Shown here one piece after another: positions 2,047-45,549 of a stretch of 64,000 bases of DNA. Positions within the stretch are counted from its first letter, which is position 1, and each line of letters opens with the position of its first letter. The stretch comes from Deltaproteobacteria bacterium (GTDB taxonomy: Bacteria > Desulfobacterota_D > UBA1144 > Nemesobacterales > JAJCZQ01): positions 13,731-77,730 of the forward strand of contig JAJCZQ010000049.1 in assembly GCA_029262335.1 (NCBI GenBank). The letters are read 5' to 3'. Made by a program: the position numbers and the translations under genes. The notes under the pieces are model-generated. The model was not told where the DNA came from and did not search any database. It worked only from the letters and a program-made list of their open reading frames with translations.

Positions 2047-3747
2047 ATGAAATTAAGGCAATTAATTGTTTTAAGTATTTTTTCATTTTTATTTTTAACT
2101 CCGGTTGCATCTTTTTCAGGCATGCCGACTGACCTGCCCATACCTGAAACAGATTCAGCCAAATATGTACAGGTATCATTTTTTGACCTTCGTGAAAGAG
2201 AGAGTTACGTGCAGGTTACAAATACAAGTGCATCATCCAAGATACTGCATGTACAGGTATTTGATGTTAGCAATGACTGTGGCGAAAATAATTTTTTTGA
2301 TGATTATACAGGTAATGACACCCATGTTTACAATATGAGGAACATACAGACAAATGACGGCGATGATGCAGGCCTTGTGCTTCCCGATGACGCATACGGA
2401 ATAGTTGTAATATATTCAGTAGTGAGCGAAGGCGGCCCGATTGATGAGAGTGAAGAGCTTGTAGGGAATTTCAGAATTCTTGATGATCTTGGTTATGAAT
2501 ATCGCACAAATTCACAGGCGTTTTTCCTTAACGCAGACCCAATGCCTTTAAATACAGAGAGATTTTTTACTTTTAACTTTAACACTACAGCCGGAACTAG
2601 CTTTGCAGATGTTGTAGGTGTAAACATGGTTTTCGATGAAGGTTCAAATGAATTTTCAGTTAACCCTCTTGACGTAGGATTAACGCTGGATGTTGATCTG
2701 TTCAATAATGCAGAAGTTCCATTTTCCTGCCGCGACGTAGCATTTGTATGTGCAAATGATGAAAGCCCTGTAATAAATTTTATTCTGGAATCCGCAGGAG
2801 TTGCAGTTGCTGCTTTTGAATATGGTATCAACAATGCTCTGCCTCATAGTAAAGGCGGTGAAGTATTATGTTCCGGAAATATAGTTGGTGAAGGACATGC
2901 AAAACTTACAATAGAATCAGTATCAACAAGTAATCTTGTGTCTGCTTTTTTTGTAGGACTGAATAACGGAAACGGAAGAGGCAGTATGGACTCTCTTTGG
3001 GACCCATCAGACAATGATTTCCTTAGAGACATTTTGATAGGTGATTCTACAGTAATAGAGAGTGAAGACCTCATATTTCCTGTAACACTGACTACTCCTT
3101 CTGATGAAGAAGTTGAGGTTGATTTTGGAGTAAATGATATAGATACTTCGGGAATAGCTGATTTTGATCTGTCAATGGCTCAATGTAGTCTGGATAATAT
3201 TCTTTTCTCAGATTGTTCAACACTTTTATTTCCACCCGGCGTAACAATGGCCTATTATTTGATTCCTACTGTTGATGATGACATATTTGAACCTGATGAA
3301 GACCTTGAACTATTTGTTGATTCAGTGCTGTCAGGGGAGATAAGGAACACAATTGAAGGTACAGGTACAATACAGGATGACATGATGCCGCCTGACCTTA
3401 CAATTCTAGATTCTACAATTGTTGAGAGCGGCGGAAGTATGCTTATTGATCTTGAGCTGTCAGGGCCGTCATCAGAACCAATTACAGTAGAACTTCTGAC
3501 TGCAGACGGAACACCAGATCCAGCTACAGAAGATTCTGATTACACAACTCAGGATGGTGTAATGGTTACATTTACGCCTATGACTACAATGCAAAGTATA
3601 ATGATTCCAATTATTGATGATGGTGTTTGTCCTGCGGAACCTTTAAATGAATTTTTTATTATTGACGTAGCAAATATAATAACTGGTCAGCTTGGCACAA
3701 TTACACCTGGAACAGGAACTATTGTTGCTCCTGCATGTATAATGTAA
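2047..3747 (+). CDS. Secreted acidic protein, paralog family member 1: signal peptide, conserved N-terminal module of unknown function, C-terminal Calx-beta-like repeats
   Basis: 566 aa, N-terminal signal peptide, very D/E-rich. N-terminal region is nearly identical to ORF 3946..5691 (PIPETDSAKYVQVSFFDLRERESYVQVTNTSASSK...). C-terminal segments (TVDDDIFEPDEDLELFV, IPIIDDGV...EFFII...GTGTI) fit the Calx-beta pattern (I.DD...E.DE.F.V.L). RBS gggagg upstream. Confidence 0.8.
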   Translation: MKLRQLIVLSIFSFLFLTPVASFSGMPTDLPIPETDSAKYVQVSFFDLRERESYVQVTNTSASSKILHVQVFDVSNDCGENNFFDDYTGNDTHVYNMRNIQTNDGDDAGLVLPDDAYGIVVIYSVVSEGGPIDESEELVGNFRILDDLGYEYRTNSQAFFLNADPMPLNTERFFTFNFNTTAGTSFADVVGVNMVFDEGSNEFSVNPLDVGLTLDVDLFNNAEVPFSCRDVAFVCANDESPVINFILESAGVAVAAFEYGINNALPHSKGGEVLCSGNIVGEGHAKLTIESVSTSNLVSAFFVGLNNGNGRGSMDSLWDPSDNDFLRDILIGDSTVIESEDLIFPVTLTTPSDEEVEVDFGVNDIDTSGIADFDLSMAQCSLDNILFSDCSTLLFPPGVTMAYYLIPTVDDDIFEPDEDLELFVDSVLSGEIRNTIEGTGTIQDDMMPPDLTILDSTIVESGGSMLIDLELSGPSSEPITVELLTADGTPDPATEDSDYTTQDGVMVTFTPMTTMQSIMIPIIDDGVCPAEPLNEFFIIDVANIITGQLGTITPGTGTIVAPACIM

Positions 3748-3945: not shown

Positions 3946-5691
3946 ATGAATTCAAGAATAATACTATTATTAGGAATCGTAATATCTTTATTAATCTCAT
4001 TGCCATTTACCACATATGCAGGAATGCCTGATTTTGATGACGACGACCTTCCGATACCGGAAACGGATTCAGCCAAGTATGTACAGGTATCTTTCTTTGA
4101 CCTTAGAGAAAGAGAAAGTTATGTACAGGTAACAAATACAAGTGCATCATCAAAAGTCCTGCACGTTCAGGTCTTTGATGTAAATAATGATTGTAACGAA
4201 AATAATTTTTTTGATGATTATACAGGTAATGACACCCATGTTTATAACATGAGGGACATCCTGACCAACGATGGTGACGATGCAGGCCTTGTGCTTCCTG
4301 ACGGTGCATATGGAATAGTTGTAATATATTCTGTCGTAAGTGAAGGCGGCCCGATAGATACGGGACAGAACCTGATAGGAAATTTCAGGATTATGGATGA
4401 CCTTGGTTATGAGTACAGGACCAATTCACAGGCATTCTTCCAGGACATTGACCCCGAACCGCAAAATTCACAAAGATTTTTTACTTTTAATTTTAATTCT
4501 ACAGCCGGTACAAGCTTTGCAGATGTTGTAGGTGTCAACATGGTTTTTGATAATGGTTCAAATGAGTTTGTAGTAAACCCGCTTGATGTTGGACTCACCC
4601 TGGATGTTGATTTATTTAATAATGATGAAGTTCCTTTTTCCTGCCGCGACGTGGCATTTGTATGTGCAAATGATGAAAGCCCTGTGATAGATTCTATTCT
4701 TGAAAATGCAGGAGTTGCAGTTGCGGCTTTTGAATATGGAATAAACAATGCACTTCCTCACAGTAAAGGCGGAGAGGTTCTTTGCTCGGGAAATATTGTG
4801 GATGAAGGGCATGCCAGGCTTACTATTGAATCAGTATCCAACAGTGAACTTGTCTCTGCATTTTTTGTAGGACTGAATAATGGGAACGGAAGAGGTAGTA
4901 TGGACTCTCTCTGGGACCCTTTTGATACTGACTTTGTAAGGGACCTTCTTATAGGTGATTCAACTGTTATTGAAAGTGAGAGCCTTATATTTCCTGTAAC
5001 TATTACTACACCTTCTGATGAATCACTCTTTGTTACTCTCGATCTTATAGACGGTTCTGCTACAAGTACGGATGATTATAATGAAATGTCTACCCGGTGC
5101 AGCCTTGAACCAGATATGAACTTTGAACCCTGCGGTGCAATTGAATTTCCACCAGGTGTAACAATGGCTTATTACCTTGTTCCTACCAGAATCGATGATA
5201 TCTTTGAACCTGATGAAGACCTCACGGTTGAATTTGTCAGTGCAACAGGTGATATAAGAAATGCTAATGTTGGTACCGGAATAATTATGGATGACCTGAT
5301 GCCGCCTGATATAACAATTATGGACTCAACTGTAATGGCAAGTGAAACATTTATGTTTGAAATGCAGCTCAGCCATCCTTCATCAGAGCCTATAACTATT
5401 GCACTTAGAACAGAAGATGGTCAGGATAACCCTACTTCAACTGAAGCAACTGATTGCAACGATCCTGGCGCAGACTATCTATCTGCAGACGGGTCGGAGG
5501 TGACATTTCCTGCTGGTGATACGGTATTAGTAATGCCGTTTCCTGTTCAAACTTGTGAAAATAACGTTTCTTGTGACAGTGCTTTTTCAGAAGACCTTAT
5601 ACTTGATGCCGATCAATTGTCAGGACAAATAGGTACAATTACACCTGGAACAGGAACAATAAATAATAATGCTGTTTGTATGGGCCCATGA
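3946..5691 (+). CDS. Secreted acidic protein, paralog family member 2 (same architecture as 2047..3747)
   Basis: 581 aa, signal peptide. Long blocks identical to paralog 1 (ESYVQVTNTSASSK, NNFFDDYTGNDTHVYNMR, GNGRGSMDSLWDP, FPPGVTMAYYL, DDIFEPDEDL). C-terminal GTITPGTGTI conserved. Middle and C-terminal regions are more diverged. Confidence 0.8.
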   Translation: MNSRIILLLGIVISLLISLPFTTYAGMPDFDDDDLPIPETDSAKYVQVSFFDLRERESYVQVTNTSASSKVLHVQVFDVNNDCNENNFFDDYTGNDTHVYNMRDILTNDGDDAGLVLPDGAYGIVVIYSVVSEGGPIDTGQNLIGNFRIMDDLGYEYRTNSQAFFQDIDPEPQNSQRFFTFNFNSTAGTSFADVVGVNMVFDNGSNEFVVNPLDVGLTLDVDLFNNDEVPFSCRDVAFVCANDESPVIDSILENAGVAVAAFEYGINNALPHSKGGEVLCSGNIVDEGHARLTIESVSNSELVSAFFVGLNNGNGRGSMDSLWDPFDTDFVRDLLIGDSTVIESESLIFPVTITTPSDESLFVTLDLIDGSATSTDDYNEMSTRCSLEPDMNFEPCGAIEFPPGVTMAYYLVPTRIDDIFEPDEDLTVEFVSATGDIRNANVGTGIIMDDLMPPDITIMDSTVMASETFMFEMQLSHPSSEPITIALRTEDGQDNPTSTEATDCNDPGADYLSADGSEVTFPAGDTVLVMPFPVQTCENNVSCDSAFSEDLILDADQLSGQIGTITPGTGTINNNAVCMGP

Positions 5692-5721
5692 GTATCAAAT
5701 TATAATTAATTTAACTTTTAA

Positions 5722-5755
5722 ACCCCTGTTTATTGTTATAAACAGGGGTTTTTAT
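5722..5755. terminator. Bidirectional rho-independent terminator between convergent genes
   Basis: Perfect hairpin acccctgtttat-tgtt-ataaacaggggt followed by TTTTT on the + strand and preceded by A-run (T-run on the - strand). Confidence 0.7.
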
Positions 5756-5970
5756 TTACTATTACTCTTGAATACTTCTTTGTCTACTTCCAGATATAAA
5801 GTTGCAGAGTTATGATCCGGGTAAAGCTCTAAATAGTACCTTTGACCTTTAACTACTTTTGTATTTTCATCCGAACAAAATGCCTTAAGCCTGCTTACTT
5901 TCTTTTCGAACTGTTCCGGTTTATGAAAATTTAATTTATTTACTGTTTTTAACTCTATAATTTTTTTCAT
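5752..5970 (-). CDS. Small hypothetical protein (72 aa)
   Basis: ORF only. No recognisable motif, weak RBS. Sits next to the terminator and an AT-rich region. Confidence 0.3.
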   Translation of the reverse strand: MKKIIELKTVNKLNFHKPEQFEKKVSRLKAFCSDENTKVVKGQRYYLELYPDHNSATLYLEVDKEVFKSNSK

Positions 5971-6988: not shown

Positions 6989-8365
6989 ATGGTAAATAAA
7001 AGTAATTCACCAAGAAAAATAATTTTATATGTTTTACTCTTTTCTATTGGATTATTTTATTCAAATGTTTATGCACAATCGGGCAAAAATGTAACTTCAA
7101 TAGAAATTAACGGTACTATTAACCCGTCAACAACTGATTATATAAAAGCCGGGCTTATTGAAGCCCGTGAAAACAACTCCGAGGCGCTCCTGATACTGCT
7201 TGATACACCTGGCGGCCTTCTTAATTCCACAAAGGATATTGTAAAACTACTGCTTAATTCTGATATTCCTGTAATTGTTTATGTTTACCCAAAGGGATCA
7301 AGCGCAACTTCAGCGGGTGTATTTATTACAATGGCTGGTAATATCGCGGCTATGGCACCAGGCACCAGCATAGGTGCGGCACATCCCGTAAGTATAGGCG
7401 GGAAGAATACAAAGCCAAAGAAAAATACTAATCCTCTCGAGAAAAAGGATGAAGCAAAAGAAAAAGAACAAAAAGAAAATAGTGATATAATGGGTGAAAA
7501 AATTGAGAACTATGCAATCTCATTTTTGCAGAGCATTGCTGAGGAAAGAAACAGAAATATAGAATGGGCAGAACAGGCAGTTAAGAACAGCGATTCAATT
7601 ACTGCAAATGAAGCACTTAAACTAAATGTAATTGATGTTATCTCACCCAATGTTCCGTCTCTATTAAATACAATCAACGGAAAAAAGATAAAAGTTAATG
7701 ACAAACAGCTTGTATTAAATACATCCGGGGCCAAACAGAAATTTTTTGAAATGAGCCTAAAGCAAAAAATAGTAAATATTCTAAGTACCCCTGACATTGC
7801 ATTTCTCTTATTATCGCTTGGCTCGCTTGGTATTTTAATTGAGTTTTACAACCCGGGTTCAATATTCCCTGGCGTTGCGGGACTTATATCCTTACTTATA
7901 GGATTTGTATCACTTCAAATACTACCTTTTAACTACGGCGGACTTGCGCTTGTGTTTTTAGGTCTTGGGCTTTTTGTAGCGGAGGTATATGTTACAAGCT
8001 ATGGATTGCTGAGCCTTGCCGGCTTAATTAGTTTTGTTTTTGGTGCAATTCTCTTGTTTGAAACAAATGAATCAGATATAAAAGTCGGCCATGGGGTAAT
8101 AATTGCAACTTCAGCCACACTCGGCATATTTTTCATGTACGTAGCGTATTCTGTTTCAAGAACTTTAAAACTTGGAACCATGAGCGGTTTTGAAGGTATG
8201 GTTGGAGAACAGGGCGAAGTTGTCTCATGGGAAAACGGAAACGGTAAAATTTTTATTAATGGCGAATACTGGAACGCGTTTAGTGATGACGCACTAAAAA
8301 GCGGTGATAAAGTAAGTGTTACGGAAAGTACGGGAAGTTTAAATATTAAAGTATCTAAAAATTGA
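6989..8365 (+). CDS. NfeD-family membrane-bound serine protease (ClpP-class, long form)
   Basis: Signal/TM at N-terminus. ClpP-like core (ILLDTPGGLL, VIVYV.P.GSSATSAGVFITMAGNIAAMAPGTSIGAAHPV). Multi-TM central region and C-terminal OB-like domain. Immediately upstream of an SPFH/stomatin gene, the classic pairing. Start placed at the internal ATG 6989 (MVNKSNS...), which is followed by the hydrophobic signal/TM segment; the track ORF begins at 6944. Confidence 0.75.
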   Translation: MVNKSNSPRKIILYVLLFSIGLFYSNVYAQSGKNVTSIEINGTINPSTTDYIKAGLIEARENNSEALLILLDTPGGLLNSTKDIVKLLLNSDIPVIVYVYPKGSSATSAGVFITMAGNIAAMAPGTSIGAAHPVSIGGKNTKPKKNTNPLEKKDEAKEKEQKENSDIMGEKIENYAISFLQSIAEERNRNIEWAEQAVKNSDSITANEALKLNVIDVISPNVPSLLNTINGKKIKVNDKQLVLNTSGAKQKFFEMSLKQKIVNILSTPDIAFLLLSLGSLGILIEFYNPGSIFPGVAGLISLLIGFVSLQILPFNYGGLALVFLGLGLFVAEVYVTSYGLLSLAGLISFVFGAILLFETNESDIKVGHGVIIATSATLGIFFMYVAYSVSRTLKLGTMSGFEGMVGEQGEVVSWENGNGKIFINGEYWNAFSDDALKSGDKVSVTESTGSLNIKVSKN

Positions 8366-29359: not shown

Positions 29360-31291
29360 ATGGCGACTTCAAAAATAATTGGAATTGATCTGGGAACTAC
29401 GAATTCTGTTGTTGCTATTGTAGAAGGCGGAGAACCAAAGATTATAATAAACGAGGAAGGAAACAGGACCACCCCTTCGGTAGTTGCATTTGCCAAGGAC
29501 AAGGAGATCCTTGTTGGCGATTCTGCTAAAAGGCAGGCTGTAGCTAATCCTGAAAATACAATCTTTTCCAATAAGAGAATGATTGGCAGAAGGTTTGAAG
29601 AGGTTAAAGACGAAGTAGGCAGTCTGCCTTACAAGATTGTAAAATCTTCTAATGACGATGCATGGTTTGAAGTCGAAGGCGAACAGTATTCACCTCCGCA
29701 GATTTCTTCCAACATTTTAATGAAATTAAAAAAAGCTGCTGAAGACTATATTGGTACTTCGGTAAATGAAGCGGTTATTACTGTTCCGGCTTACTTCAAT
29801 GACAGCCAGAGGCAGGCAACAAAAGATTCCGGTAAAATAGCCGGCCTTGAAGTTAAAAGGATTATTAACGAACCTACGGCAGCAGCGCTTGCTTATGGTT
29901 TTGATAAAAAAAGTGAAGGAATTATTGCCGTTTATGACCTCGGCGGCGGTACTTTTGATATATCGATACTTGAAGTAGGGGACAATGTAATTGAAGTAAA
30001 ATCAACCAATGGTGATACTCACCTTGGGGGAGATGACTTCGACAAAAAAATTATTGATTACATAATCGAAGAATTTAAAAAAGATTCAGGCATTGATCTT
30101 AGTAACGATAAAATGGCCCAGCAGAGGCTGAGGGAAGCAGCAGAGAAAGCCAAGATTGAGCTTTCAAGTAAACTTGAAACAGAGATCAATCTTCCATTTA
30201 TAACTGCAGATGCATCTGGTCCAAAGCATTTAGTATTAAAAATAACCCGTTCGAAATTTGAACAGATTGTAGACCCTCTTGTTAAGGGTACACTTGAACC
30301 CTGCAAGCAGGCACTTAAAGATGCCGGATTAAAAGCTGGTGACATTTCCGAAATTATTCTTGTTGGTGGATCTACGAGGACCCCGCTTGTGCAGAAAGTT
30401 GTTTCTGAATTTTTTGGAAAAGAACCTCACAAGGGAATTAATCCTGATGAAGTTGTTGCAATGGGTGCAGCGATTCAGGGTGCGGTACTTGGAGGCGAAG
30501 TAAGAGACGTATTACTTCTTGACGTAACCCCTTTATCTCTTGGTATAGAAACACTTGGCGGCATCATGACTCCAATTATTACAAGAAATACAACAATACC
30601 AACAAAAAAGAGCCAGGTATTTACTACTGCGGAAGACAACCAGACCTCAGTAGAAATACATGTGCTGCAGGGTGAAAGGCAGATGGCTGCTGATAACAGA
30701 ACACTTGCAAGGTTTATACTGGACGGTATACCGCCTGCTGCCAGGGGAGTGCCCCAAGTAGAGGTCACTTTTGATACTGATGCCGACGGTATTATGCACG
30801 TTTCTGCAAAGGACATGGCATCGCAAAAAGAACAGAAAATTAAAGTAGAAGCATCAAGCGGCCTTTCTAAAGAAGAAATTGATTCTATGGTTGATGAGGC
30901 TGAAGCCAAGTCAGAAGAAGATAAACAACGTCATGAAGCCGTAGAGAAAAAGAACAAACTTGATGAACTCATTTACAGGACCGATAAGAGTTTTAAAGAG
31001 CTTGAAGAAAAACTTTCTGATGAAGAGAAAAAAGAACTTCAGGATGCCCTTGAAACAGGAAGAGAAGCTGTGAAATCAGACGATATTGCACAGATAGATG
31101 CTGCTACAGAAAAGATAACACAGGCTTCGCATAAACTTGCTGAAATCATGTATAAAGAGCAGCAGGAACAGGCAACAGAAGATGGTGCCCAGCAGCCCGA
31201 AGGAGAACAACCAGAAGGCGAAACAGAATCTTCGGAAGAAGATGACAAAAGCGATGATGATGTAATCGATGCTGAATTTACAGAAAAATAA
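29360..31291 (+). CDS. dnaK: Chaperone DnaK (Hsp70), copy 1
   Basis: [18 protein letters not shown], and acidic C-terminal tail ending DAEFTEK. 643 aa. Only 24 nt downstream of rpoH. Confidence 0.9.
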
Positions 31292-34579: not shown

Positions 34580-36463
34580 TTGGCAATAGTAGGAATTGAT
34601 TTAGGTACAACAAACTCATGTATTTCCATCATTGAACAGAATGAACCGGTAGTTATTCCAAATGAGGAAGGAAGCCGGACTTCGCCTTCAGTTGTTGCAT
34701 TTACCGAAGACAACAGCCGTATTGCAGGCGCTGTAGCAAAGAGGCAGGCTTTGGTAAACCCTTTGAATACAGTTTTTGCCGTTAAGAGGCTTATCGGCAG
34801 AAAAATTGATTCCGGTGAAGTAAAAAAATCTATAGAAATATCCCCATTTACAATTGTTTCCAACAACAACGGAGATGCCTGGGTAGAGGTAAACGGCAAC
34901 AGGTACAGCCCGCAGGAAATCTCATCTAACATCCTTATGAAGATGAAAAATATTGCGGAGGAATATCTGGGGTACGATGTTAATGAAGCAGTAATTACAG
35001 TACCGGCACATTTTAATGATATTCAGCGCCAGGCTACAAAAGATGCGGGTAAGATTGCCGGCCTTGATGTAAAAAGAATCATAAACGAACCTACGGCTGC
35101 GGCACTGGCCTATGGAATGGAGAACAAGGAGAACCAGAAGGTTGCAGTGTTTGACCTTGGAGGCGGTACTTTCGATTTTACCATACTTGAGATTGCAAAC
35201 GGCGTATTTGATGTAAAAGCCACAAGTGGTGACACCTATCTGGGCGGTGATGATTTTGACCAGAGAATAATTGAACATGTTGTAGAAGTCTTTAAAAATG
35301 AAAACAATATAGACCTGAAAGAAGACAAAATGGCACTCCAGAGAATAAGGGAAGCCTGCGAGAAAGCCAAACATGAACTGTCTTCACTCGAAGAAACCAA
35401 TATAAATCTTCCATTTATCGCGGTTGATTCCACGGGGCCAAAACATTTAAACCTTAAACTCTCGAGGCCGGAACTTGAAAAACTGGTTGATGACCTTATT
35501 ACAAGGCTCGCTTATCCATGTGAGCAGGCAATGAGTGATGCAGGCATGACGGCTGATGAGATTGATGAGATAGTACTGGTCGGTGGTATGACGAGGATGC
35601 CTAAAGTAAGGGAAAAGGTAAAACAGATTTTTGGCAGGGAAGCACAGTCGAGAATAAACCCCGAAGAAGTAGTTGCAATCGGGGCTGCAATACAGGGTGG
35701 TGTACTTGAAGGTAAAGTAGAAGATGTTCTTCTGCTTGATGTTGTTCCTCTATCCCTTGGTATCGAAACCAAAGGTGAACTGTTTACAAAAATTATTGAA
35801 AGAAATACTACTATTCCAACAAAAAAGAGCCAGATATTTACAACAGCTTATGATAACCAGGATTTTGTAAGCATTCATATACTGCAGGGTGAACGTGAGA
35901 TGGTAGGTGACAATATATCTCTTGCCAAGTTCAATATGGTGGATATTCCTCTTGCACCCAAAGGTGTGCCCCAGATAGAAGTCTCATATGAAGTGGATGC
36001 AGACGGTATACTCCATGTTTCTGCTCATGACCTTGGTACTGACAATATACAGGAAATTGTTGTTGAAAATTCAAGCGGGCTTAATGATGAAGAAATTGAT
36101 TCAATTATAAATCAGAGTCAGAAAAGTAAGGAAGATGACAAAAATAAAAAAGAATACGCACTGTTAAAGAATGAAGCTGAAGGGTTGATATATTCGGTTA
36201 ATAAAACTTTAAGTTCACATGGTGATAAGATTGATTCTGAGACAGATGTAAGGATACGTGAAGAGCTAAAAACACTTGAAGATGAATTAAACGGGGATGA
36301 TTACAACTCTCTAAATATAGCTTTAAAATCTTTACAGGATGTATCTTATAAATTTGCCCAGACGATATATTCTTCTAAGGGCAATGACACAAAGACTGAA
36401 AAACCTGCTGCTGAAGCACTTTCTTCTGATGATACTGATGACGAAGAAAATGTATCCGAGTAA
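34580..36463 (+). CDS. dnaK: Chaperone DnaK (Hsp70), copy 2
   Basis: [18 protein letters not shown], full substrate-binding domain. 627 aa. TTG start. Sits in the hrcA-grpE-dnaK-dnaJ arrangement. Confidence 0.85.
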
Positions 36464-36483: not shown

Positions 36484-37575
36484 ATGACTAAAGATTATTA
36501 TGAAATCCTTGGTATTGGCAGGGACGCTAATTCAGAGGATATAAAAAGAACTTATAAAAAACTTGCTTTCGAATACCATCCCGACAGAAACCCTGATGAC
36601 CAGGATGCACTCGACAAATTCAAAGACATAAATGAAGCATACCAGATACTTGGCGATGATAATAAACGTGCCCAGTATGACAGCTTTGGAAGTATTTCCG
36701 GTGATGGTAATTTTGGGAATGCGGGGTTCAGTTCCAATCTGAACGATATATTTGGAAACCTTTTTGAAGAAGTATTTAGTTCCGGGTTCTCAAATGGCGG
36801 CCAAAAAGGCAGAGATCTGAAATATGAACTGTCTATTAGTTTTGAAGATGCTGCCTTTGGTATGGAAAAAGAAATAGTTATACCAAAAAAAGAGCTTTGC
36901 GGTACATGTGACGGAAAGGGAGCTGCTCCCGGTGGAGACTCTGTATGCGGCGTATGTAAGGGCAGGGGGACAATGGATTATGCAAAAGGTTTTTTTGCTA
37001 TAAGCCAGCCATGCGGACAGTGCAGGGGAAGAGGGTATATTATTGAAAAGTACTGTGATGAGTGTGAAGGCGACGGGTTTATCAGGACAGAAAAGAAGGT
37101 AAAGGTAAACATTCCTGCGGGAATAGGGGACTCTTCAAGGCTTAGAATAAGAGGTGAAGGCGAAATAGGTATGGGCGGAGCTCCTGACGGCGACCTGTTT
37201 ATCGTTATTTTTGTTGAAGAGCATGCAATATTTAAAAGAGATAACAACAATATTTACTGCGAAGTACCAATTGATTTTATTACTGCCACTGTAGGTGGAG
37301 AAATCCAGATCCCAACACTTGGCGGGATAGAAAGTTTTAATATTCCTGAAGAGACCCAGCCGGGACAGTCATTTAGGATCAAGGGGAAAGGGCTTCCGGA
37401 TTTGCAGTCAGGAAGACTTGGTGACTTATATCTGATTATCAATATAGATATACCTAAAAATCTAAATTCAAAGCAGAAAAAAGTACTTAAAGATACACTT
37501 AAAGATATAAAACCACAGCAGTTTTCAAACCTGGATAGTTATAATAAGACCCTTGAGAATGAATTCAAAAAATAG
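36484..37575 (+). CDS. dnaJ: Co-chaperone DnaJ
   Basis: J domain (DYYEILGI...YHPDRNP), G/F-rich region, four CxxCxGxG zinc-finger repeats. 363 aa. Confidence 0.9.
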   Translation: MTKDYYEILGIGRDANSEDIKRTYKKLAFEYHPDRNPDDQDALDKFKDINEAYQILGDDNKRAQYDSFGSISGDGNFGNAGFSSNLNDIFGNLFEEVFSSGFSNGGQKGRDLKYELSISFEDAAFGMEKEIVIPKKELCGTCDGKGAAPGGDSVCGVCKGRGTMDYAKGFFAISQPCGQCRGRGYIIEKYCDECEGDGFIRTEKKVKVNIPAGIGDSSRLRIRGEGEIGMGGAPDGDLFIVIFVEEHAIFKRDNNNIYCEVPIDFITATVGGEIQIPTLGGIESFNIPEETQPGQSFRIKGKGLPDLQSGRLGDLYLIINIDIPKNLNSKQKKVLKDTLKDIKPQQFSNLDSYNKTLENEFKK

Positions 37576-37581
37576 ATGTTG

Positions 37582-37857
37582 TTAATAACCGCCGGCAATA
37601 GCAGGGATTATTGATACATTATCATTCTCACCGAGTTCGGTGTCTTTACCATTTAGAAAACGAATATCTTCGTTGTTTACATAGAGGTTAATAAATCTTC
37701 TGATGTTGCCTTCTTCATCGCAGATCCTGTCTTTGATTCCAGGGCATTCTTTCTCCAGTCCTTCGATTAACTCGGAAACGTTAGCAGCACTGATGTTAAG
37801 TTCTTCCCTGTCTCCTGATAGTTTTCTTAAAGGTGTTGGTATTCTTACTGATGGCAT
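37582..37857 (-). CDS. MoaD/ThiS-family sulfur-carrier-like protein with one residue after the Gly-Gly (ends AIAGGY)
   Basis: 91 aa beta-grasp-like pattern (...[34 protein letters not shown]). 18 nt downstream of the ThrC-family gene on the same strand. Its stop is 6 nt from the dnaJ stop (convergent). Confidence 0.6.
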
Positions 37858-37875
37858 AATTTTATCTCCTTAGCT

Positions 37876-39105
37876 TTATAAACTATTATACAATTCTTCG
37901 AAATTATCAATGTTTGGTTCAATCACTTCCGGCTTTTTAACGCTGTCTATAATTGCATCCTGGGTCTTAAGGCCGTTGCCGGTAATGGAGATAACGGTGA
38001 GTTCATCTGTAGGCAGTTTTCCCTGTTCTATAAGTTTTTTTGTTACTGCAACAGTAACTCCGCCGGCAGTTTCAGTGTAGATACCCTCTGTTTCTGCCAG
38101 TAGCTTTATTCCATCTATAATTTCCTGGTCTGATACATCCTCTGCATGGCCGCCGCTTTCATTAATTACAGACATTGCATACACGCCGTCTGCAGGAGTA
38201 CCTATTGCAAGTGACTTGGCAATTGTATCAGGTTTTACAGGTTTAAAAATTTCCCATTTGTTTTTAAATGCAGTTGAAATAGGGGAGCACCCGGTTGCCT
38301 GGGCCCCGTACATCTTTGTATTTGATGGCTCTATCATACCAAGCAGTTCAAATTCCTTGATAGCTTTCCATACTTTTGTAAGCAGTGAGCCGCTTGCCAT
38401 CGGGACTACTATATTGGCAGGAGCTTTCCAGCCAAGCTGTTCCATAATTTCAAATGCATATGATTTGGAACCTTCCGAGTAGTAAGGCCTCATATTTATA
38501 TTTACAAAGGCCCAGTTGTATTTCCCTGCAATCTCACTGCAGAGCCTGTTAACATCGTCGTATGCACCTTTTATCCCAACAAGATTTGTTCCATATATAA
38601 CGCTGTTAATCACTTTTGATTCTTCGAGGTCATAGGGAATAAAAATAAAACTCTTTAGATTCCCTGAAGATGCAAGTGATGATACTGCATTTGCGAGGTT
38701 GCCGGTTGATGCACATGATACCGTATCAAAACCAAACTCCTTTGATTTTGATAATGCTACGGAAACAACCCTGTCCTTGAAAGACAGTGTAGGGAAACAT
38801 ACAGCATCGTTTTTAACATAGAGGTTTGAATGGCCAAGTGCTTTACCAAGATTATCAGCCTTTACCAGCGGGGTGTATCCTACCTGTGCCCCGATTGTGG
38901 GTTCGTTGTCTATTGGTAATAGTTCGGCATAACGCCAGATGTTTTTCTCACGCGAAAGTATTAGCTCTTTGGAGAGGTCTTTCTTTATATTGTCGTAGTC
39001 GTATTCTACTTCCAATGGGCCGAAACATGTCTCACAGACATATATTGGCTCCTTTGGATAACGCTCTCCGCATTCTTTACATTTCAGGCCTTTTGTATAA
39101 CTCAT
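37876..39105 (-). CDS. Threonine synthase family PLP-dependent enzyme with N-terminal zinc ribbon (ThrC or ThrC-like)
   Basis: N-terminal CxxC...CxxC ribbon, PLP-lysine motif SFKDR, fold-type II PLP enzyme length (409 aa). Confidence 0.8.
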   Translation of the reverse strand: MSYTKGLKCKECGERYPKEPIYVCETCFGPLEVEYDYDNIKKDLSKELILSREKNIWRYAELLPIDNEPTIGAQVGYTPLVKADNLGKALGHSNLYVKNDAVCFPTLSFKDRVVSVALSKSKEFGFDTVSCASTGNLANAVSSLASSGNLKSFIFIPYDLEESKVINSVIYGTNLVGIKGAYDDVNRLCSEIAGKYNWAFVNINMRPYYSEGSKSYAFEIMEQLGWKAPANIVVPMASGSLLTKVWKAIKEFELLGMIEPSNTKMYGAQATGCSPISTAFKNKWEIFKPVKPDTIAKSLAIGTPADGVYAMSVINESGGHAEDVSDQEIIDGIKLLAETEGIYTETAGGVTVAVTKKLIEQGKLPTDELTVISITGNGLKTQDAIIDSVKKPEVIEPNIDNFEELYNSL

Positions 39106-39169
39106 ATATGTTTACTCTTTGGATAAAATTGGAAAGAAAAATTACCTTTTATTAGTTATGTTGTCAAAA

Positions 39170-39661
39170 CTACTCTTGCACATTAATTTCTTCTACAATT
39201 TCTTCATCTTTATAGGGCCTTATGCCCTTTTTATCTATTACAACCTTAATTATTTCATCTGAAACAATCATGTTCTTTCCATTATTGTATTTACCGCTTA
39301 CTACCACGGTATCGTTAAGTCCCATTTCATCAAGCTCTTCGAACTGGACATTTATAGTGTTGCCCTGGCTGTCAGAGAGTACCATAATGTTTTCTTCCTG
39401 TATTTCTTCATCTTTTTCATTGGGTTCATCAGTTTCAACAGCCTCAGGGTCATCAATTATTTCATCTGCATATGTAATATCAGTGATATACCCAAGTACA
39501 ACAATTTTGGCACCGGCAAAGGCTATTGGTGACACCTGTACACGTTTAATTGTCGTTTTCATGCCCCTTATGTTAAAGGCCGGCTCTTTTGGCTGTTTCT
39601 TTGGGCAGCCCACTAATAAAATAATAGTGGAAAAAAATAATAGTTTTATTAAATTACTCAT
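39170..39661 (-). CDS. Acidic lipoprotein, function unknown
   Basis: Signal plus lipobox LLVGC. 163 aa, D/E-rich. Confidence 0.55.
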   Translation of the reverse strand: MSNLIKLLFFSTIILLVGCPKKQPKEPAFNIRGMKTTIKRVQVSPIAFAGAKIVVLGYITDITYADEIIDDPEAVETDEPNEKDEEIQEENIMVLSDSQGNTINVQFEELDEMGLNDTVVVSGKYNNGKNMIVSDEIIKVVIDKKGIRPYKDEEIVEEINVQE

Positions 39662-39722
39662 TCTTTTATATAAACATTACTAGGGTAAAGTGTTGAGTTA
39701 AGTATATCCTAAGGAGAGTGAT

Positions 39723-40514
39723 ATGTATATCTTGGAAAATGAGAATTTTAACATTTACAGGTTCGATGTAGGCAATGAAGGCAGGAACTATCAGTACATT
39801 GTGAAATGCAATGAAACCTCGGAATGTGTAGTAATTGACCCGTTAGACCCTGTAAGCCTGCTTCATTTTATCAGGGACAATAAACTCAGGGTTGCCGAAG
39901 TACTCAATACTCACGGGCACCCGGACCATATAGGCGGAAACAACCCGATAATTAAGGTATTTCTTGATTCCAGGATACATATTCACAGGGAAGGGCTGGA
40001 TTTTGTTGCCCCAAGGACTGTGGTTATAGATGAAGGTGATGTAATAACTTTTGGAAACCAGTCCATTTCAGTGATAAATACGCCGGGTCACTGCCCGGAG
40101 CACGTTTCTTTTATAATTGGAAATAATATATTCGTGGGTGACACGATTTTTCTATCAGGATGCGGCAATGTTAAGTTCAGAGGTGATGTGGATGTACTGT
40201 TTGATACATTTAAAGATAAAATCAGAACACTTGATGACAATATGAATATATTTTGTGGTCATGATTACGCAATAAATAACCTAGAATATGCTTTAAGTGT
40301 TGATCCTAACAATAAGGCAATAAATGATAAAACAGATAAATTAAAAAAATCTGACGAAGCTTTATCCACAGTTGCCGAAGAAAGGCTGTATAATCCATTT
40401 ATGCGCTTTGATAATGAAGGTCTGGTGACTAACTTAAAGGAAAAATATCCTGAAATGAACACAGACGGAAGGTCTGTCTTTACTAAATTAAGAGAACTTA
40501 GAAATAACTGGTAG
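39723..40514 (+). CDS. MBL-fold hydrolase, glyoxalase II (GloB)-like
   Basis: THGHPDHIGG metal-binding motif, downstream H and D ligands (GHCPEH, CGHDY). 263 aa. Confidence 0.6.
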   Translation: MYILENENFNIYRFDVGNEGRNYQYIVKCNETSECVVIDPLDPVSLLHFIRDNKLRVAEVLNTHGHPDHIGGNNPIIKVFLDSRIHIHREGLDFVAPRTVVIDEGDVITFGNQSISVINTPGHCPEHVSFIIGNNIFVGDTIFLSGCGNVKFRGDVDVLFDTFKDKIRTLDDNMNIFCGHDYAINNLEYALSVDPNNKAINDKTDKLKKSDEALSTVAEERLYNPFMRFDNEGLVTNLKEKYPEMNTDGRSVFTKLRELRNNW

Positions 40515-40633
40515 AATCTTACCTTAATTTAATCAATCATAATAAGGGATGTAAAGTCTAAAGACGGGGAGATTTACCTAAAAAGTTTTTAAAAATAAAT
40601 TTATAAGCGTTATGGATAAATTGTAATAGAACT

Positions 40634-43600
40634 ATGTCAGAAAATCATACAAATACTTATAAACAATTAAAGGATTTACTTGAAGAACGAATTTTATTCC
40701 TCGATGGTGCAATGGGTACCATGATCCAGAGGTATAAGCTCGAAGAAGATGACTTCAGGGGAGATATATTTAAAGACCATGATACTGATTTAAAAGGCAA
40801 TAATGACCTTTTGTCACTTACAAGGCCTGAGATTATTAAAGAGATTCATCTCCAGTACTTTGAAGCCGGATCAGATATAGTTGAAACAAACACTTTTAGT
40901 GCAACAACTATCGCCCAGGCGGATTACAACCTGGAATATACGGTAAAAGACCTTAATGTAGAATCCGCAAAAATTGCCAAGCAGGCTGCCAAAGAGATAA
41001 TGGATAAATATCCGGGAAGACAGTGTTTTGTAGCTGGTGCAATTGGCCCTACTAATAAAACAGCTTCGATGTCACCGGATGTAAATAATCCTGCATACAG
41101 GGCTGTGAGTTTCCAGGAACTTGTCGATGCATACCGTGAGCAGATAGAAGCACTGGTTGAAGGCGGAGTAGATATTCTCCTTCCTGAGACTACATTTGAT
41201 ACACTTAATCTAAAAGCTGCAATTTATGCACTTGAAGAGTTTTTTGACAGTTACGGCAAAAGGCTTCCAGTAATGCTTTCGGTAACTATTACAGACCAGT
41301 CGGGAAGGACACTTTCCGGACAGACAGTCGGCGGATTTTGGAACTCGGTAAGCCATGCAAAACCACTTAGCGTCGGTATCAACTGCGCACTTGGTGCTGA
41401 AGCCATGAGACCTTATATACAGGAACTATCAAATATAGCGGGTTGTTATATAAGCTGCTACCCAAATGCGGGGCTTCCTAATCCATTAAGTGAGACGGGT
41501 TACGACCAGACCCCTGAGATGACAGGATCGTTGCTTCAGGATTTTGGTGAAAGCGGATTTCTAAATATGGTAGGCGGATGCTGCGGTACCACGCCCGATC
41601 ATATAAAAAGTATAGTTGATTGTATCAAAGACTTAAAACCAAGAAAAATTCCTGAATTAGAACCTGCCACAAGACTTAGCGGGCTTGAAGCGCTGACTAT
41701 TAAAGCAGAAAAAGGGACTCCTTTTATTATGGTAGGTGAAAGGACCAATGTCACAGGGTCTCCGAGATTCGCAAAACTTATAAAAGAAGAAGATTATGAG
41801 ACTGCACTTTCTGTAGCGGCGCAACAGGTAGAGAACGGAGCAAATATAATTGATATAAATTTTGATGAAGGCTTGCTTGATAGTGAAGCGTGTATGGAGA
41901 AGTTCCTGAACCTTGTCGCATCCGAACCGGATATTGCAAGGGTGCCGATAATGATCGACAGCTCCAAGTTTTCTGTTATTGAAACAGGACTCAGATGCGT
42001 ACAGGGAAAATGCGTTGTTAACTCCATAAGTATGAAAGAGGGTGAAGACCTTTTTCGTGAACAGGCAAGAAAAATAATGAAGTACGGCGCGGCGGTAGTT
42101 GTAATGGCTTTTGATGAAGAAGGCCAGGCCGCAGAAGCAGAAGACAAGGTAAGAATATGCCAAAGAGCATATAAAATCCTTACAGAAGAAGTGGGTATGG
42201 ACCCGACTGATATTATATTTGACCCAAACATCCTGACAGTAGCTACAGGTATTGAAGAACATAATAACTATGCGCTTAACTTTATAAATGCAGTTAGAGA
42301 TATAAAAGAAAAATGCCCCGACGCTCTTACAAGCGGTGGTGTGAGTAATATCTCATTTTCACTTCGCGGAAACAATATTGTTAGGGAAGCAATGCACAGT
42401 GCATTTCTTTATCATGCAATAGATGCAGGGCTTGATATGGGGATTGTAAATGCCGGAATGCTGGCCGTTTATGATGACGTGGAAAAAGAGCTTCTGGAAA
42501 AAGTAGAAAATGTACTTTTAAATAAAAGCCCCGATGCCACCGAAGAGCTTGTTGATTTTGCAGAGCAGTTTAAAGGCGTTAAGAGTGCTGAGAAGAAAGC
42601 AGAAGATAAGGCTTGGCGTGATCAGCCGGTAGAAGAAAGGCTTAAATACTCACTCGTAAACGGGATATCTGATTTTGTTGATGAAGACACGGAAGAGGCT
42701 AGGGCGATGTACGATAAACCCCTTAACGTAATAGAAGGCCCTTTGATGGACGGCATGAAAGTTGTCGGTGGATTGTTCGGCGAAGGGAAGATGTTTTTGC
42801 CGCAGGTTGTAAAGAGTGCGAGGGTAATGAAAAAGGCAGTTGCCTATCTTGAACCCTACATGGAAAAACTCAAAGCAGGGTCTGATAATACGAGAGGTAA
42901 GTTTGTAATAGCCACGGTAAAAGGCGACGTACATGATATTGGGAAAAACATTGTTTCAGTTGTGCTTTCCTGCAATAACTACGAGGTAATAGACCTTGGG
43001 GTTATGGTCTCGTGTGACCAGATTCTGAATACTGCAAAAGATGTTGGTGCAAATATTATTGGACTTAGCGGACTTATTACACCGTCACTTGATGAGATGG
43101 TTTATAACGCATCAGAGATGGAAAGGCAGGGATTTGATATTCCGCTTCTTGTCGGCGGCGCTACTACAAGCAGTGCCCATACAGCTATTAAGATAGCACC
43201 TCACTATAACGGTATTGTTGATCACGTTCAGGACGCATCACTTGTGGTTGGTGTTTGCAACGATCTTTTAAATCCCGACAAAGCTGATGATTATAAATTA
43301 GAGCTTAGAGAAAAACAGAAAAAACAGAAAGCAAGATTTGAAGAGAGCCAGGCAAAGATAACTTATACACCTATTGAAGTAGCCAGGCAGAATGGTTTTA
43401 AATGTGAATGGGCAGATATTGAAATAGATACCCCGGGACATACAGGGTTGATTCATTTTAATGATATAGACCTAAAAGAAATTATTAACTACTTCGACTG
43501 GTCACCGTTTTTCTGGACCTGGGAACTTAAGGGTTCTTTTCCAAAGATCTTGGATAATCCAAACTGGGGCGAGCAGGCAAGGGAACTATATAATGATGCA

Positions 43601-44335
43601 GAAGATCTGCTTGGTGAAATAATAAATAATAAACTTTTTAATCCTTCGGCGATAGTTGGGATATGGCCGGCAAACAGTGTTGGTGATGATGTAGAGATAT
43701 ATACTGACGACAAGAGAAAAGAAGTAGTAGAAAATCTTCATTTCCTTCGCCAACAGGGAAAAAGAAAAGAAGAACAGCTCTATTACAGCCTTTCTGATTT
43801 TATAGCACCAAGATCTGCAAATAAGATTGATTATATCGGAGGATTTGCAGTAACAGCCGGTGACAAAGTTGAAAGCCTTTCTGAAAAATATAAAGACGAC
43901 AACGATGACTACACCTCAATTATGATAAAAGCACTTGGCGACAGGATTGCCGAGGCACTAGCGGAGATGATTCATAAAAAGGTTAGAGACTTATGGGGTT
44001 ACGGTAAAAAAGAAAATTTATCGAATGAAGACTTTATAAGTGAAAAATACAGGGGCATAAGGCCCGCCCCGGGATATCCTTCATGTCCCGACCATACAGA
44101 AAAAGGAATACTTTGGAGACTTCTCGATGCCGAGAAGCATACAGGTGTTTCCCTTACCGAATCATACGCTATGACCCCCGGAAGTTCCGTTTCCGGATTT
44201 TACTTCTCACACCCCGATGCACGGTATTTTAATCTTGGAAAGATACTTAAAGACCAGGTTGAAGACTACGCAAAAAGAAAAGGGCTGTCAGTAGAAGAAG
44301 TTGAAAAATGGCTCCAGCCTAATTTGGGTTATTGA
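40634..44335 (+). CDS. metH: Cobalamin-dependent methionine synthase
   Basis: 1233 aa. N-terminal Hcy-binding domain with Cys ligands (GGCCGTTP), pterin-binding domain, B12-binding D-x-H-x-x-G (GDVHDIGKN), C-terminal AdoMet reactivation domain. Confidence 0.9.
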
Positions 44336-44519: not shown

Positions 44520-45549
44520 ATGTTTAGAGGGTTAAAGTTTTTAATTATTTTTACATTGTTCTTCACAGTATTTTTTGTGGATACCAAGGATTCATTTGCT
44601 GGGGGATTTACTATAGTTCGACCGCAAACTGACAACGCTTCATACATTTTGGTATCAATCTTTGATCTAAGAAACCGTGAAAGCTATGTGCAGGTAACTA
44701 ATACTAGTGATAGTGCTCTTACAACACATGTCCAGGTATTCGCAGTTAATGATAACTGCCGTGAGAATGATTTTTTTGATACATATACCGGAAATGATAC
44801 TCATGTGTACAACATGCGTGATATATTAACAAATGACGGTAACCCATCGGGTGTTGTTCTTAATGGTGGCGAATACGGTATGGTTGTTGTTACAGCAACT
44901 TTAAATGGCTTGATTAATGATGTTTTGCAGGATTTGGTAGGAAATTTCAGAATAGTTGACGAAGCAGGTTATGAATACCGTACCAATTCTTCTGGAACAA
45001 ACAGGGTATTTATTGGTAATGATAATCCATTTGGAACTACAACTCTTTCAACTGGTAATTTTAATTCCGAAGGTGGAACAAACCAGAGTGATACGTACAC
45101 TGTTGTTTTAAGTGAAACACAGAATGGTTCTGTGGAAGTAACAGCAAATCCTTTGGAAACATTTATTGTATCCGATGTTGATATTTATGACCTTAATGAA
45201 GTCCCATTTTCATGTCCCAATACAATATTTGCTTGTGTAGATCAAAACAGTGCAGTACTTGAAGAACTACTTGAAGAGGCTGCTGAAATCTCACCAGGTG
45301 CAAGTATTGCTACTTTTGATTCTGGATTAAATGAAGTCTATCCTAGCAGTAAGGGTGCTCCTCTTGTTTGTCCAAATAACGTTGTTAAGTAATGGTTTTT
45401 CAAGAGCAAACACTGTTGGATTTAGTTTTACAGGTCCTTTTGATGGATTCTATATTGCTGCATTTGTAGGAATCAATAATGGTAACGGTAGGGGAAGTAT
45501 GGACCAGATATGGCTGGAGAATTTTTTACTTGCAACTCCATTAGGTTAA
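44520..45549 (+). pseudogene. Third member of the secreted acidic protein family: frameshifted near 45385-45392 and truncated, lacking the C-terminal Calx-beta-like region
   Basis: ORF 44520..45392 carries the family N-terminal module (ESYVQVTNTSDS, HVQVF, NDFFDTYTGNDTHVYNMRDILTNDGN, GNFRIVDEAGYEYRTNS). The continuation (AAFVGINNGNGRGSMDQIW) is in a different frame in ORF 45331..45549, and then stops about 270 codons early compared with the intact copies. Confidence 0.5.

Follow-up and report, generated by a model that had tools for sequence, protein, structure and literature searches.

A route in which homocysteine is made with sulfur borne by a small carrier protein is that of MetM and MetO in Streptomyces albulus, reportedly described by Hasebe and co-workers in 2024. 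Here we describe a gene pair from a 64-kb stretch of deltaproteobacterial DNA (the window, by which we mean the whole 64,000 nucleotides analysed), in which a pyridoxal phosphate (PLP) enzyme of the threonine synthase (ThrC) family is followed by a sulfur carrier of the ThiS/MoaD type. It is likely, with a probability that we put at about 0.8, that this pair is of the MetM/MetO type and would make homocysteine by direct, thiocarboxylate-dependent sulfhydrylation of O-phosphohomoserine (OPHS). The preliminary description of the locus had proposed the same, and the proposal is supported by the conserved pairing of the two genes, the placement of the enzyme in its clade, an S-adenosylmethionine (SAM) riboswitch in orthologues and an active-site signature. 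As in S. albulus, the PLP enzyme is a ThrC homologue annotated as threonine synthase, the carrier beside it is CysO-like, of the ThiS family, and would need C-terminal maturation, and orthologues in Nonomuraea, Micromonospora, Actinoplanes and other phyla stand behind a SAM riboswitch. The window differs from the S. albulus system in having no SAM riboswitch, E1 or JAMM gene, in an extra tyrosine at the end of the carrier and in its host, which is a low-GC (39%) marine bacterium resembling Dadabacteria. The S. albulus metM gene has itself been reported behind a SAM riboswitch (PMC12172450), and the scheme in which MetM and MetO act with Mec and MoeZ has been described together with the frequent misannotation of MetM as threonine synthase (GapMind 2026, 10.1101/2024.10.14.618325).

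The CysM/CysO/Mec+ system of Mycobacterium tuberculosis (3DWG; PMC12910592) has the same type of carrier. CysO-type proteins are the best solved relatives of the window carrier (4n6e_B, E 1e-17; M. tuberculosis CysO 3dwg_C, E 7.6e-17, with a shared ...PA(I/V)AGG end), and both systems would join an O-phospho amino acid and a protein thiocarboxylate on a PLP enzyme of fold type II. CysM-like genes also share clusters with the window-type system, in 24 of the 77 related loci described below. In contrast to CysM, the window enzyme belongs to the ThrC family (409 amino acids, with a zinc ribbon) and not to the CysK/CysM family (about 300-320 amino acids), the proposed substrate is OPHS with attack at C-gamma instead of C-beta, and CysO ends at the diglycine with no extension in the alignment with 3dwg_C. 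Protein-thiocarboxylate-dependent homocysteine synthesis has been ascribed to HcyS/HcyD/HcyF/MetY of Wolinella succinogenes as well (Krishnamoorthy and Begley 2011, as cited in PMC5764234). The Wolinella system uses MetY, an enzyme of fold type I, on O-acetylhomoserine, whereas in the window a ThrC homologue would presumably act on OPHS.

The features of the pair are the following.

37876..39105, minus strand: candidate MetM-type homocysteine synthase, a ThrC-family PLP enzyme of fold type II with 409 amino acids (open reading frame and PALP match).
39025..39081, minus strand: N-terminal four-cysteine, zinc-ribbon-like motif C9-x2-C12 ... C24-x2-C27 (from the translation).
38776..38778, minus strand: codon of K110, the PLP Schiff-base lysine of SFKDR, which aligns with K61 of Thermus thermophilus ThrC (1uim).
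37858..37875, minus strand: spacer of 18 nucleotides with a Shine-Dalgarno-like AGGAGA before the ATG of the carrier (read from the sequence).
37582..37857, minus strand: candidate sulfur carrier of the MetO/CysO type, 91 amino acids, ThiS/MoaD beta-grasp fold (Pfam ThiS).
37585..37593, minus strand: codons of G89-G90-Y91, the diglycine and one extra residue (read from the sequence).

The four cysteines, SFKDR with K110 and the matches to PALP and TIGR00260 agree with the earlier description of a zinc-ribbon gene of the ThrC family, and the open reading frames agree with a MoaD-like gene of 91 codons placed 18 nucleotides downstream on the same strand, an arrangement that suggests co-transcription. 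The enzyme matches Pfam PALP with E 1.4e-62 and the NCBIfam thrC model TIGR00260 with 282 bits (cut-off 167), stays under the cut-off of NF006050 (279 bits, cut-off 303) and has weak matches to Pfam NinF (residues 8-32) and to the cysteate synthase model TIGR03844 (residues 7-193). C9, C12, C24 and C27 are all invariant in the family alignment A1, and this N-terminus probably binds a metal; K110 is invariant in 84 of 84 members of the clade defined below. The carrier matches Pfam ThiS (E 1e-15), reaches 40.5 with the moaD_arch model TIGR01687, below its cut-off of 49.5, and ends in AGG-Y followed by a TAA stop. Homologues that are 73-79% identical are named Candidatus Dadabacteria, in some records Thermodesulfobacteriota, and the database names of the enzyme homologues always read 'threonine synthase'. 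These names and the score above the 'thrC equivalog' cut-off of TIGR00260 would suit a bona fide threonine synthase, with the adjoining carrier serving another enzyme (e.g. a CysM encoded elsewhere) and co-located for shared regulation. We hold this to be very unlikely. The model does not discriminate, because homologues linked to a SAM riboswitch also exceed its cut-off (L013 with 304 bits, P0487 with 241 bits), and so do L082 (336) and L046 (300), which belong to the clade, and no MetM-specific model was found among the NCBIfam matches of these four proteins and the window enzyme.

A scan with the family alignment, with one genome per GTDB species, gave 80 loci, with enzymes that share 54-75% identity with that of the window over the same alignment, and gene models were obtained for 77. 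The loci come from Thermodesulfobacteriota, Verrucomicrobiota, Planctomycetota, Nitrospinota, Nitrospirota, Acidobacteriota, Cyanobacteria, Chloroflexota, Aquificaceae and others. In 67 of the 77 the thrC-like gene is accompanied by a carrier gene of the family seen in the window, which in nearly all cases follows it immediately in the same orientation, typically at a distance of -4 to about +150 nucleotides. This adjacency is far above chance and the pairing is not incidental. The alternative raised in the preliminary description, a bona fide ThrC with an incidental neighbour, is therefore disfavoured, as it also is by the clade, which excludes canonical ThrCs. Within 6 kb on either side, NIL domains are found in 39 loci, a ThiF-type E1 of about 270 amino acids in 28, CysK/M-like PLP enzymes in 24 and a Prok-JAB/JAMM protein in 15 (of 77 each; Pfam bore this out for representative cases). 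Other recurrent co-directional neighbours are TusA-like, Rrf2 and aspartate kinase genes, and no Moa or Thi biosynthetic genes were found among the recurrent co-directional neighbour clusters examined. The carrier thus occurs together with this enzyme and with E1, JAMM, CysM-like and NIL genes, and its best solved relatives are of the CysO type; the company of molybdopterin or thiamine genes, named earlier as what would speak for another role, was not seen in those clusters. The CysK/M-like genes do allow that the carrier also feeds cysteine synthesis, as a bona fide threonine synthase with an otherwise employed neighbour would have it, but there is no CysM nearby in most of the carrier-linked loci. 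Among the closest relatives outside the Dadabacteria-like group, L013 (66% identical) has the complete set, in the order SAM riboswitch, thrC-like gene, carrier-NIL fusion, two CysK/M-like genes, JAMM and E1. In L065 the pair is followed by a ThrB-like kinase, which fits a supply of OPHS, for threonine or homocysteine alike.

The SAM-I riboswitch (RF00162) is found immediately upstream of the homologues in Micromonospora and Actinoplanes, of the Micromonosporaceae, which form the nearest actinobacterial cluster to the window enzyme (48% identical). Of the 26 loci (of the 80) that were scanned with Rfam, 18 have the element immediately ahead of the gene in the same orientation. A covariance model (R1) built from these RF00162 hits and run on all 80 loci detected it in 41, always just upstream of the thrC-like gene. 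When results of R1 were retested with Rfam, 10 of 10 new positives were confirmed and 2 negatives remained negative; in total Rfam confirms 28 of the 41 loci, plus three actinobacterial ones, and the remainder comes from R1. Among the 77 loci for which gene models exist, carrier and riboswitch occur together in 32, the carrier alone in 35 and the riboswitch alone in 6. The remaining 4, two of them on short contigs, lack both, so that 73 have at least one of the two. The SAM-riboswitch-controlled orthologues indicate that the enzyme clade is methionine-regulated, and such control over 41 of 80 orthologous loci makes no sense for the synthesis of threonine. The type of riboswitch also bears on the possibility that the pair makes some other sulfur compound, either cysteine from O-phosphoserine or a precursor of a thio-metabolite or siderophore. 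ThrC homologues with other substrates do exist, as the weak match to TIGR03844 recalls, and cassettes of carrier, E1 and JAMM are known from cysteine pathways. Such a cassette is also part of the thioquinolobactin pathway. Nevertheless, we regard this as extremely unlikely: the riboswitch is one for SAM and not for cysteine, the CysK/M-like genes in the same clusters would make a role in cysteine synthesis redundant, and the neighbours include metH, MetE-like and metY-metX genes, with no secondary-metabolite genes.

With the canonical ThrCs of known structure (T. thermophilus 1UIM, Aquifex aeolicus 2ZSJ, Bacillus subtilis 6CGQ and M. tuberculosis 2D1F) the window enzyme shares the fold, the PLP lysine and the STGN loop, and probably the substrate and the first half-reaction. 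Unlike them it has an additional N-terminal four-cysteine domain and an 8-residue insertion, and the context of its clade is a sulfur carrier and a SAM riboswitch, not hom/thrB. Solved canonical ThrCs reach 146-190 bits against the window enzyme (about 35% identity, and 33-37% over all comparisons with canonical ThrC), and are outscored by over 150 representatives of clusters formed at 50% identity. A neighbour-joining tree of 166 sequences has three groups. The first is formed by short canonical ThrCs with the motif STGNT and the second by zinc-ribbon proteins with STGNA, 33-38% identical to the window enzyme, on which NF006050 is centred. The third has STGNL, and its core of the STGNLAN type comprises the window enzyme, the 77 genome loci and the actinobacterial riboswitch-linked proteins. 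The window enzyme lies inside the clade spanned by the riboswitch-linked proteins in 100 of 100 bootstraps, and this clade is free of canonical ThrCs and of the STGNA group, again in 100 of 100. Thus, the phylogeny that had been suggested as a check places the enzyme not within canonical ThrC but in the riboswitch- and carrier-linked clade, and by its sequence relationships it is not a canonical threonine synthase.

Genomes in which both types occur side by side point the same way. A tblastn search against PLSDB led to a replicon of Nonomuraea gerenzanensis (NZ_LT559118.1, 11.85 Mb; L094 and L095) with two separate operons. One has a thrC-like gene behind a SAM riboswitch, with a carrier of 91 amino acids ending in AGG, and the other a canonical thrC of 352 codons (SFKDRG, STGNT) followed by thrB. 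With the riboswitch-linked paralogue the window enzyme shares 52% identity (407 bits) and with the canonical ThrC 33% (163 bits), and the window carrier is 49% identical to that of the riboswitch operon. No Streptomyces copy of the enzyme was found by tblastn in PLSDB, and a search with the Micromonosporaceae homologue P0247 returned Micromonosporaceae only, among the best 120 matches listed. The replicon is titled 'Nonomuraea gerenzanensis plasmid I' and has 10 features only; the presence of core genes, among them thrC-thrB and groEL, suggests a chromosome filed as a plasmid. Cyanobacteria likewise conserve two ThrC copies, one of a distinct lineage and the canonical thrC2 (PMC12172450). For a Microcystis member of the distinct lineage the identity is 51.6% to S. 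albulus MetM, and 47% to MetO for the product of the neighbouring gene (PMC12172450), and we find this lineage in the same clade as the window enzyme. A canonical copy kept in the same genome as the paralogue, in Nonomuraea and in cyanobacteria, is difficult to reconcile with a bona fide threonine synthase.

The family was also aligned to T. thermophilus ThrC, with the numbering checked (K61 in SFKDR, S84-T88 in STGNT). The signature of the clade consists of seven positions, six of which are invariant or nearly so and the seventh Ser or Gly. They are listed with the T. thermophilus residue first, the residue of the window enzyme second and the count among clade members last.

T88, replaced by L137: 84 of 84.
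S155, replaced by N204: 84 of 84.
N157, replaced by R206: 84 of 84.
R160, replaced by Y209: 84 of 84.
Q164, replaced by S213: 81 of 84.
N188, replaced by S or G at 238: 84 of 84.
N191, replaced by L241: 82 of 84.

The positions K110, S133, T134, N136 and N202, which cover the PLP lysine and most of the STGN loop, are unchanged and the loop as a whole is conserved, whereas T88, S155, N157, R160, N188 and N191 of canonical ThrC are replaced in the clade of the window enzyme. We take T88, N154, S155, R160 and N188 to be the phosphate-site residues of ThrC. Omi and co-workers in 2003 and Murakawa and co-workers in 2011 are said to have found that these five bind the phosphate of substrate or product, and that the retained phosphate directs the addition of water at C-beta. 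Only N154 is retained among them in the window enzyme, and a phosphate site remodelled in this way would fit a different second half-reaction. Inspection of the active-site residues, which had been called for earlier, thus yields a clade-invariant signature in place of the presumed phosphate ligands, and the clade-wide replacement of four of these argues further against a bona fide threonine synthase. In this signature the window enzyme does not differ from the riboswitch-controlled members, so that there is no hint of a lineage-specific change of function.

The same signature has to be considered for an enzyme with two functions, which as the only ThrC homologue of a small-genome lineage would make threonine with water and homocysteine with the thiocarboxylated carrier. 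OPHS and the phosphate-elimination half-reaction are common to both reactions, a member of the lineage has threonine synthase-like activity in vitro (PMC12172450), and the SAM riboswitch is lost in the Dadabacteria-like loci, as might be expected if threonine were also needed. However, a separate canonical ThrC is kept in Nonomuraea and, according to PMC12172450, in cyanobacteria, and the signature does not set the window enzyme apart from members under riboswitch control; we thus find two functions unlikely. The charging of the carrier, and not a SAM riboswitch, would then set how the sole ThrC of a streamlined lineage splits OPHS between threonine and homocysteine. We doubt that this is so; if true, such a charged-carrier branch point would explain why the lineage has lost a riboswitch kept by half of its relatives.

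The MetM/MetO-type function that we prefer requires a carrier that can be matured, and the preliminary description had noted that the residue after the diglycine would need trimming. Among the 120 closest homologues of the carrier SIIPAIAGG is invariant and the tails after it are unconstrained, with nothing after the diglycine in 17, N in 19, K in 11, Y in 9, and tails of 2 to about 25 residues in addition. Such hypervariability is the pattern expected of a removable extension. JAMM is nearby in 11 of 25 loci with tailed carriers versus 4 of 42 with untailed ones (Fisher p = 0.002, in a test that ignores phylogeny). The Wolinella carrier has one extra residue after the diglycine, and there it is trimmed by a JAMM-type protease.

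The carrier also occurs in other arrangements among the related loci. In seven of them (L013, at 7275-7790, L015, L016, L018, L022, L025 and L034) a NIL domain (PF09383) is fused straight after the diglycine of the carrier, and separate small NIL reading frames are seen elsewhere (e.g. L055 8309-8551 and L074 4447-4689). Such domains have been known from MetN, which imports methionine, and from the NIL-ferredoxin protein of the DUF39 pathway to homocysteine (PMC5764234); here NIL may be a third component, in methionine sensing or sulfur relay. L055, a metagenome-assembled genome (MAG) of Actinomycetota, has a carrier fused after the diglycine to a ThiF E1 domain and a CysK/M-like PLP enzyme with a fused ThiS domain (fusion reading frames at 7235-8302 and 4834-5952); judged from N-termini, the rest of its cluster is JAMM, NIL, sulfite-reductase-like and PAPS-reductase-like (PAPS, 3'-phosphoadenosine 5'-phosphosulfate). 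Three loci of Verrucomicrobiota (L035 7247-7816, L040 4437-5044 and L050 7257-7874) have two tandem carriers after the thrC-like gene, the first being the more divergent (...PSIAGG or ...PAFAGG). In two loci of Acidobacteriota (L068 4385-9597 and L073 5761-10640) a SAM riboswitch stands ahead of the thrC-like gene and of genes for MetY (Cys_Met_Meta_PP), for an alpha/beta hydrolase resembling MetX and for a MetW-like protein, and there is no carrier nearby. A MetM-type enzyme thus shares an operon with the O-acetylhomoserine route, which suggests that it uses sulfide or that its carrier is encoded elsewhere.

All chemical steps of the proposed scheme are inferred; it is the one summarised for MetM/MetO/Mec/MoeZ (GapMind 2026, 10.1101/2024.10.14.618325) and parallels CysM/CysO (PMC12910592). 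A JAMM/MPN+ peptidase, presumably encoded elsewhere in the genome, would remove Tyr91 after the diglycine of the carrier, and an E1 of the ThiF/MoeB type, presumably also present in the genome, would adenylate the exposed glycine, after which a sulfur donor would give the thiocarboxylate. The ThrC homologue of 409 amino acids would bind OPHS on PLP and eliminate phosphate as threonine synthase does, and the thiocarboxylate of the carrier would then attack C-gamma, in place of water at C-beta. By analogy with CysO/CysM the adduct would probably undergo an S-to-N acyl shift and be hydrolysed by the JAMM enzyme that trims the carrier, and the free homocysteine would be methylated to methionine by MetH.

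Several observations weigh against the MetM/MetO-type reading. Hidden Markov models (HMMs) made from the ThiF, JAMM, NIL and CysK/M neighbours of related loci were run on the window open reading frames of at least 50 amino acids, and no E1, JAMM or NIL gene was found by them in the 64 kb; the earlier statement that the window holds neither a MoeB/ThiF-like E1 nor a JAMM protease is thus borne out. The CysK/M model has its sole match in the enzyme itself, a weak one of 71 bits. Rfam detects no SAM riboswitch in the window at its gathering score, and a threshold as permissive as E <= 1 reveals none in 37400-40700; the Dadabacteria-like relatives L001, L005 and L012 are likewise without one. The presumed ligand S155 stands opposite N204 in one alignment, while a larger one assigns N204 to an insertion of a single residue. 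With the characterised MetM the connection is indirect, through the riboswitch-linked actinobacterial homologues and the identities given for Microcystis (PMC12172450). In addition, the Microcystis lineage member has threonine synthase and threonine deaminase activity in vitro (PMC12172450), so that some threonine synthase activity of the window enzyme is possible; the threonine synthase activity is also a point in favour of a bona fide threonine synthase.

The neighbourhood of the pair in the window includes one gene that would consume its product.

40634..44335, plus strand: B12-dependent methionine synthase MetH, 1233 amino acids, a homocysteine consumer given here as context (open reading frame).

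As described earlier, metH lies 1.5 kb from the start codon of the enzyme on the opposite strand. The copy in L001 is identical to it and has the Pfam domains S-methyl_trans, Pterin_bind, B12-binding and Met_synt_B12, and the synteny is retained in the relatives L005-L007, together with two half-size MetE-like (Meth_synt_2) genes of 330 amino acids each. Since the lineage-wide synteny block also holds the dnaK operon (hrcA-grpE-dnaK-dnaJ), the proximity of metH is only weak evidence. No hom or thrB gene was found near the enzyme within the window, and the few kilobases past the window ends have unrelated genes only, with no E1, JAMM, thrC or metX among them. The open reading frame at 434-1657 (plus strand) was considered as an alternative homoserine kinase (HomK) that would supply OPHS and was rejected, with 178 bits to TIGR02535 (cut-off 446); it is an archaeal-type cofactor-independent phosphoglycerate mutase (ApgM, 577 bits to PRK04135), of the same superfamily as HomK. 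A lipoprotein gene at 39170-39661, upstream of the enzyme, was also considered as a component and is placed outside the system because its conservation is limited to the Dadabacteria-like lineage (30% identity in L012). A literature search on the methionine metabolism of Dadabacteria gave nothing useful.

A MetM/MetO-type pair would fill the homocysteine step upstream of MetH in the source genome, and it would correct two routine misannotations, that of the enzyme as 'threonine synthase' and that of the carrier, which often goes by the name 'molybdopterin synthase sulfur carrier subunit'. The clade is widespread and well defined, and about half of the 80 loci are controlled by a SAM riboswitch. 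Because it passes the NCBI threshold for a thrC equivalog, metabolic reconstructions will over-call the synthesis of threonine and under-call that of methionine. The clade is also relevant to Aquifex aeolicus, which has been listed without any homocysteine pathway then known (PMC5764234). The solved ThrC of A. aeolicus (2zsj) is of the canonical type, and a clade member from an Aquificaceae MAG (L071 148-1377) bears on this gap; it is 57% identical to the window enzyme and has the full signature, with no adjacent carrier in 6 kb. The pair is most likely an addition, from a poorly studied phylum, to a system described in 2024, its mechanism being conceptually not new. It is ordinary in kind and useful for annotation.

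Some further genes of the window can be mentioned. Directly upstream of metH, at 39723-40514 (plus strand), is a gene for a protein of the metallo-beta-lactamase fold resembling hydroxyacylglutathione hydrolase (180 bits to TIGR03413, cut-off 201), with a counterpart at 7114-7923 in L005; in L005-L007 the counterpart overlaps metH by 10 nucleotides, and the two MetE-like genes come after it. Two DnaK/HSP70 paralogues are encoded within 5 kb on the plus strand, the one at 34580-36463 in the hrcA-grpE-dnaK-dnaJ operon and the one at 29360-31291 after a sigma-70 family gene. Three paralogous predicted secreted proteins (2047-3747, 3946-5691 and 44520-45392, plus strand) have the common N-terminal motif SYVQVSFFDLRERESYVQVTNT.

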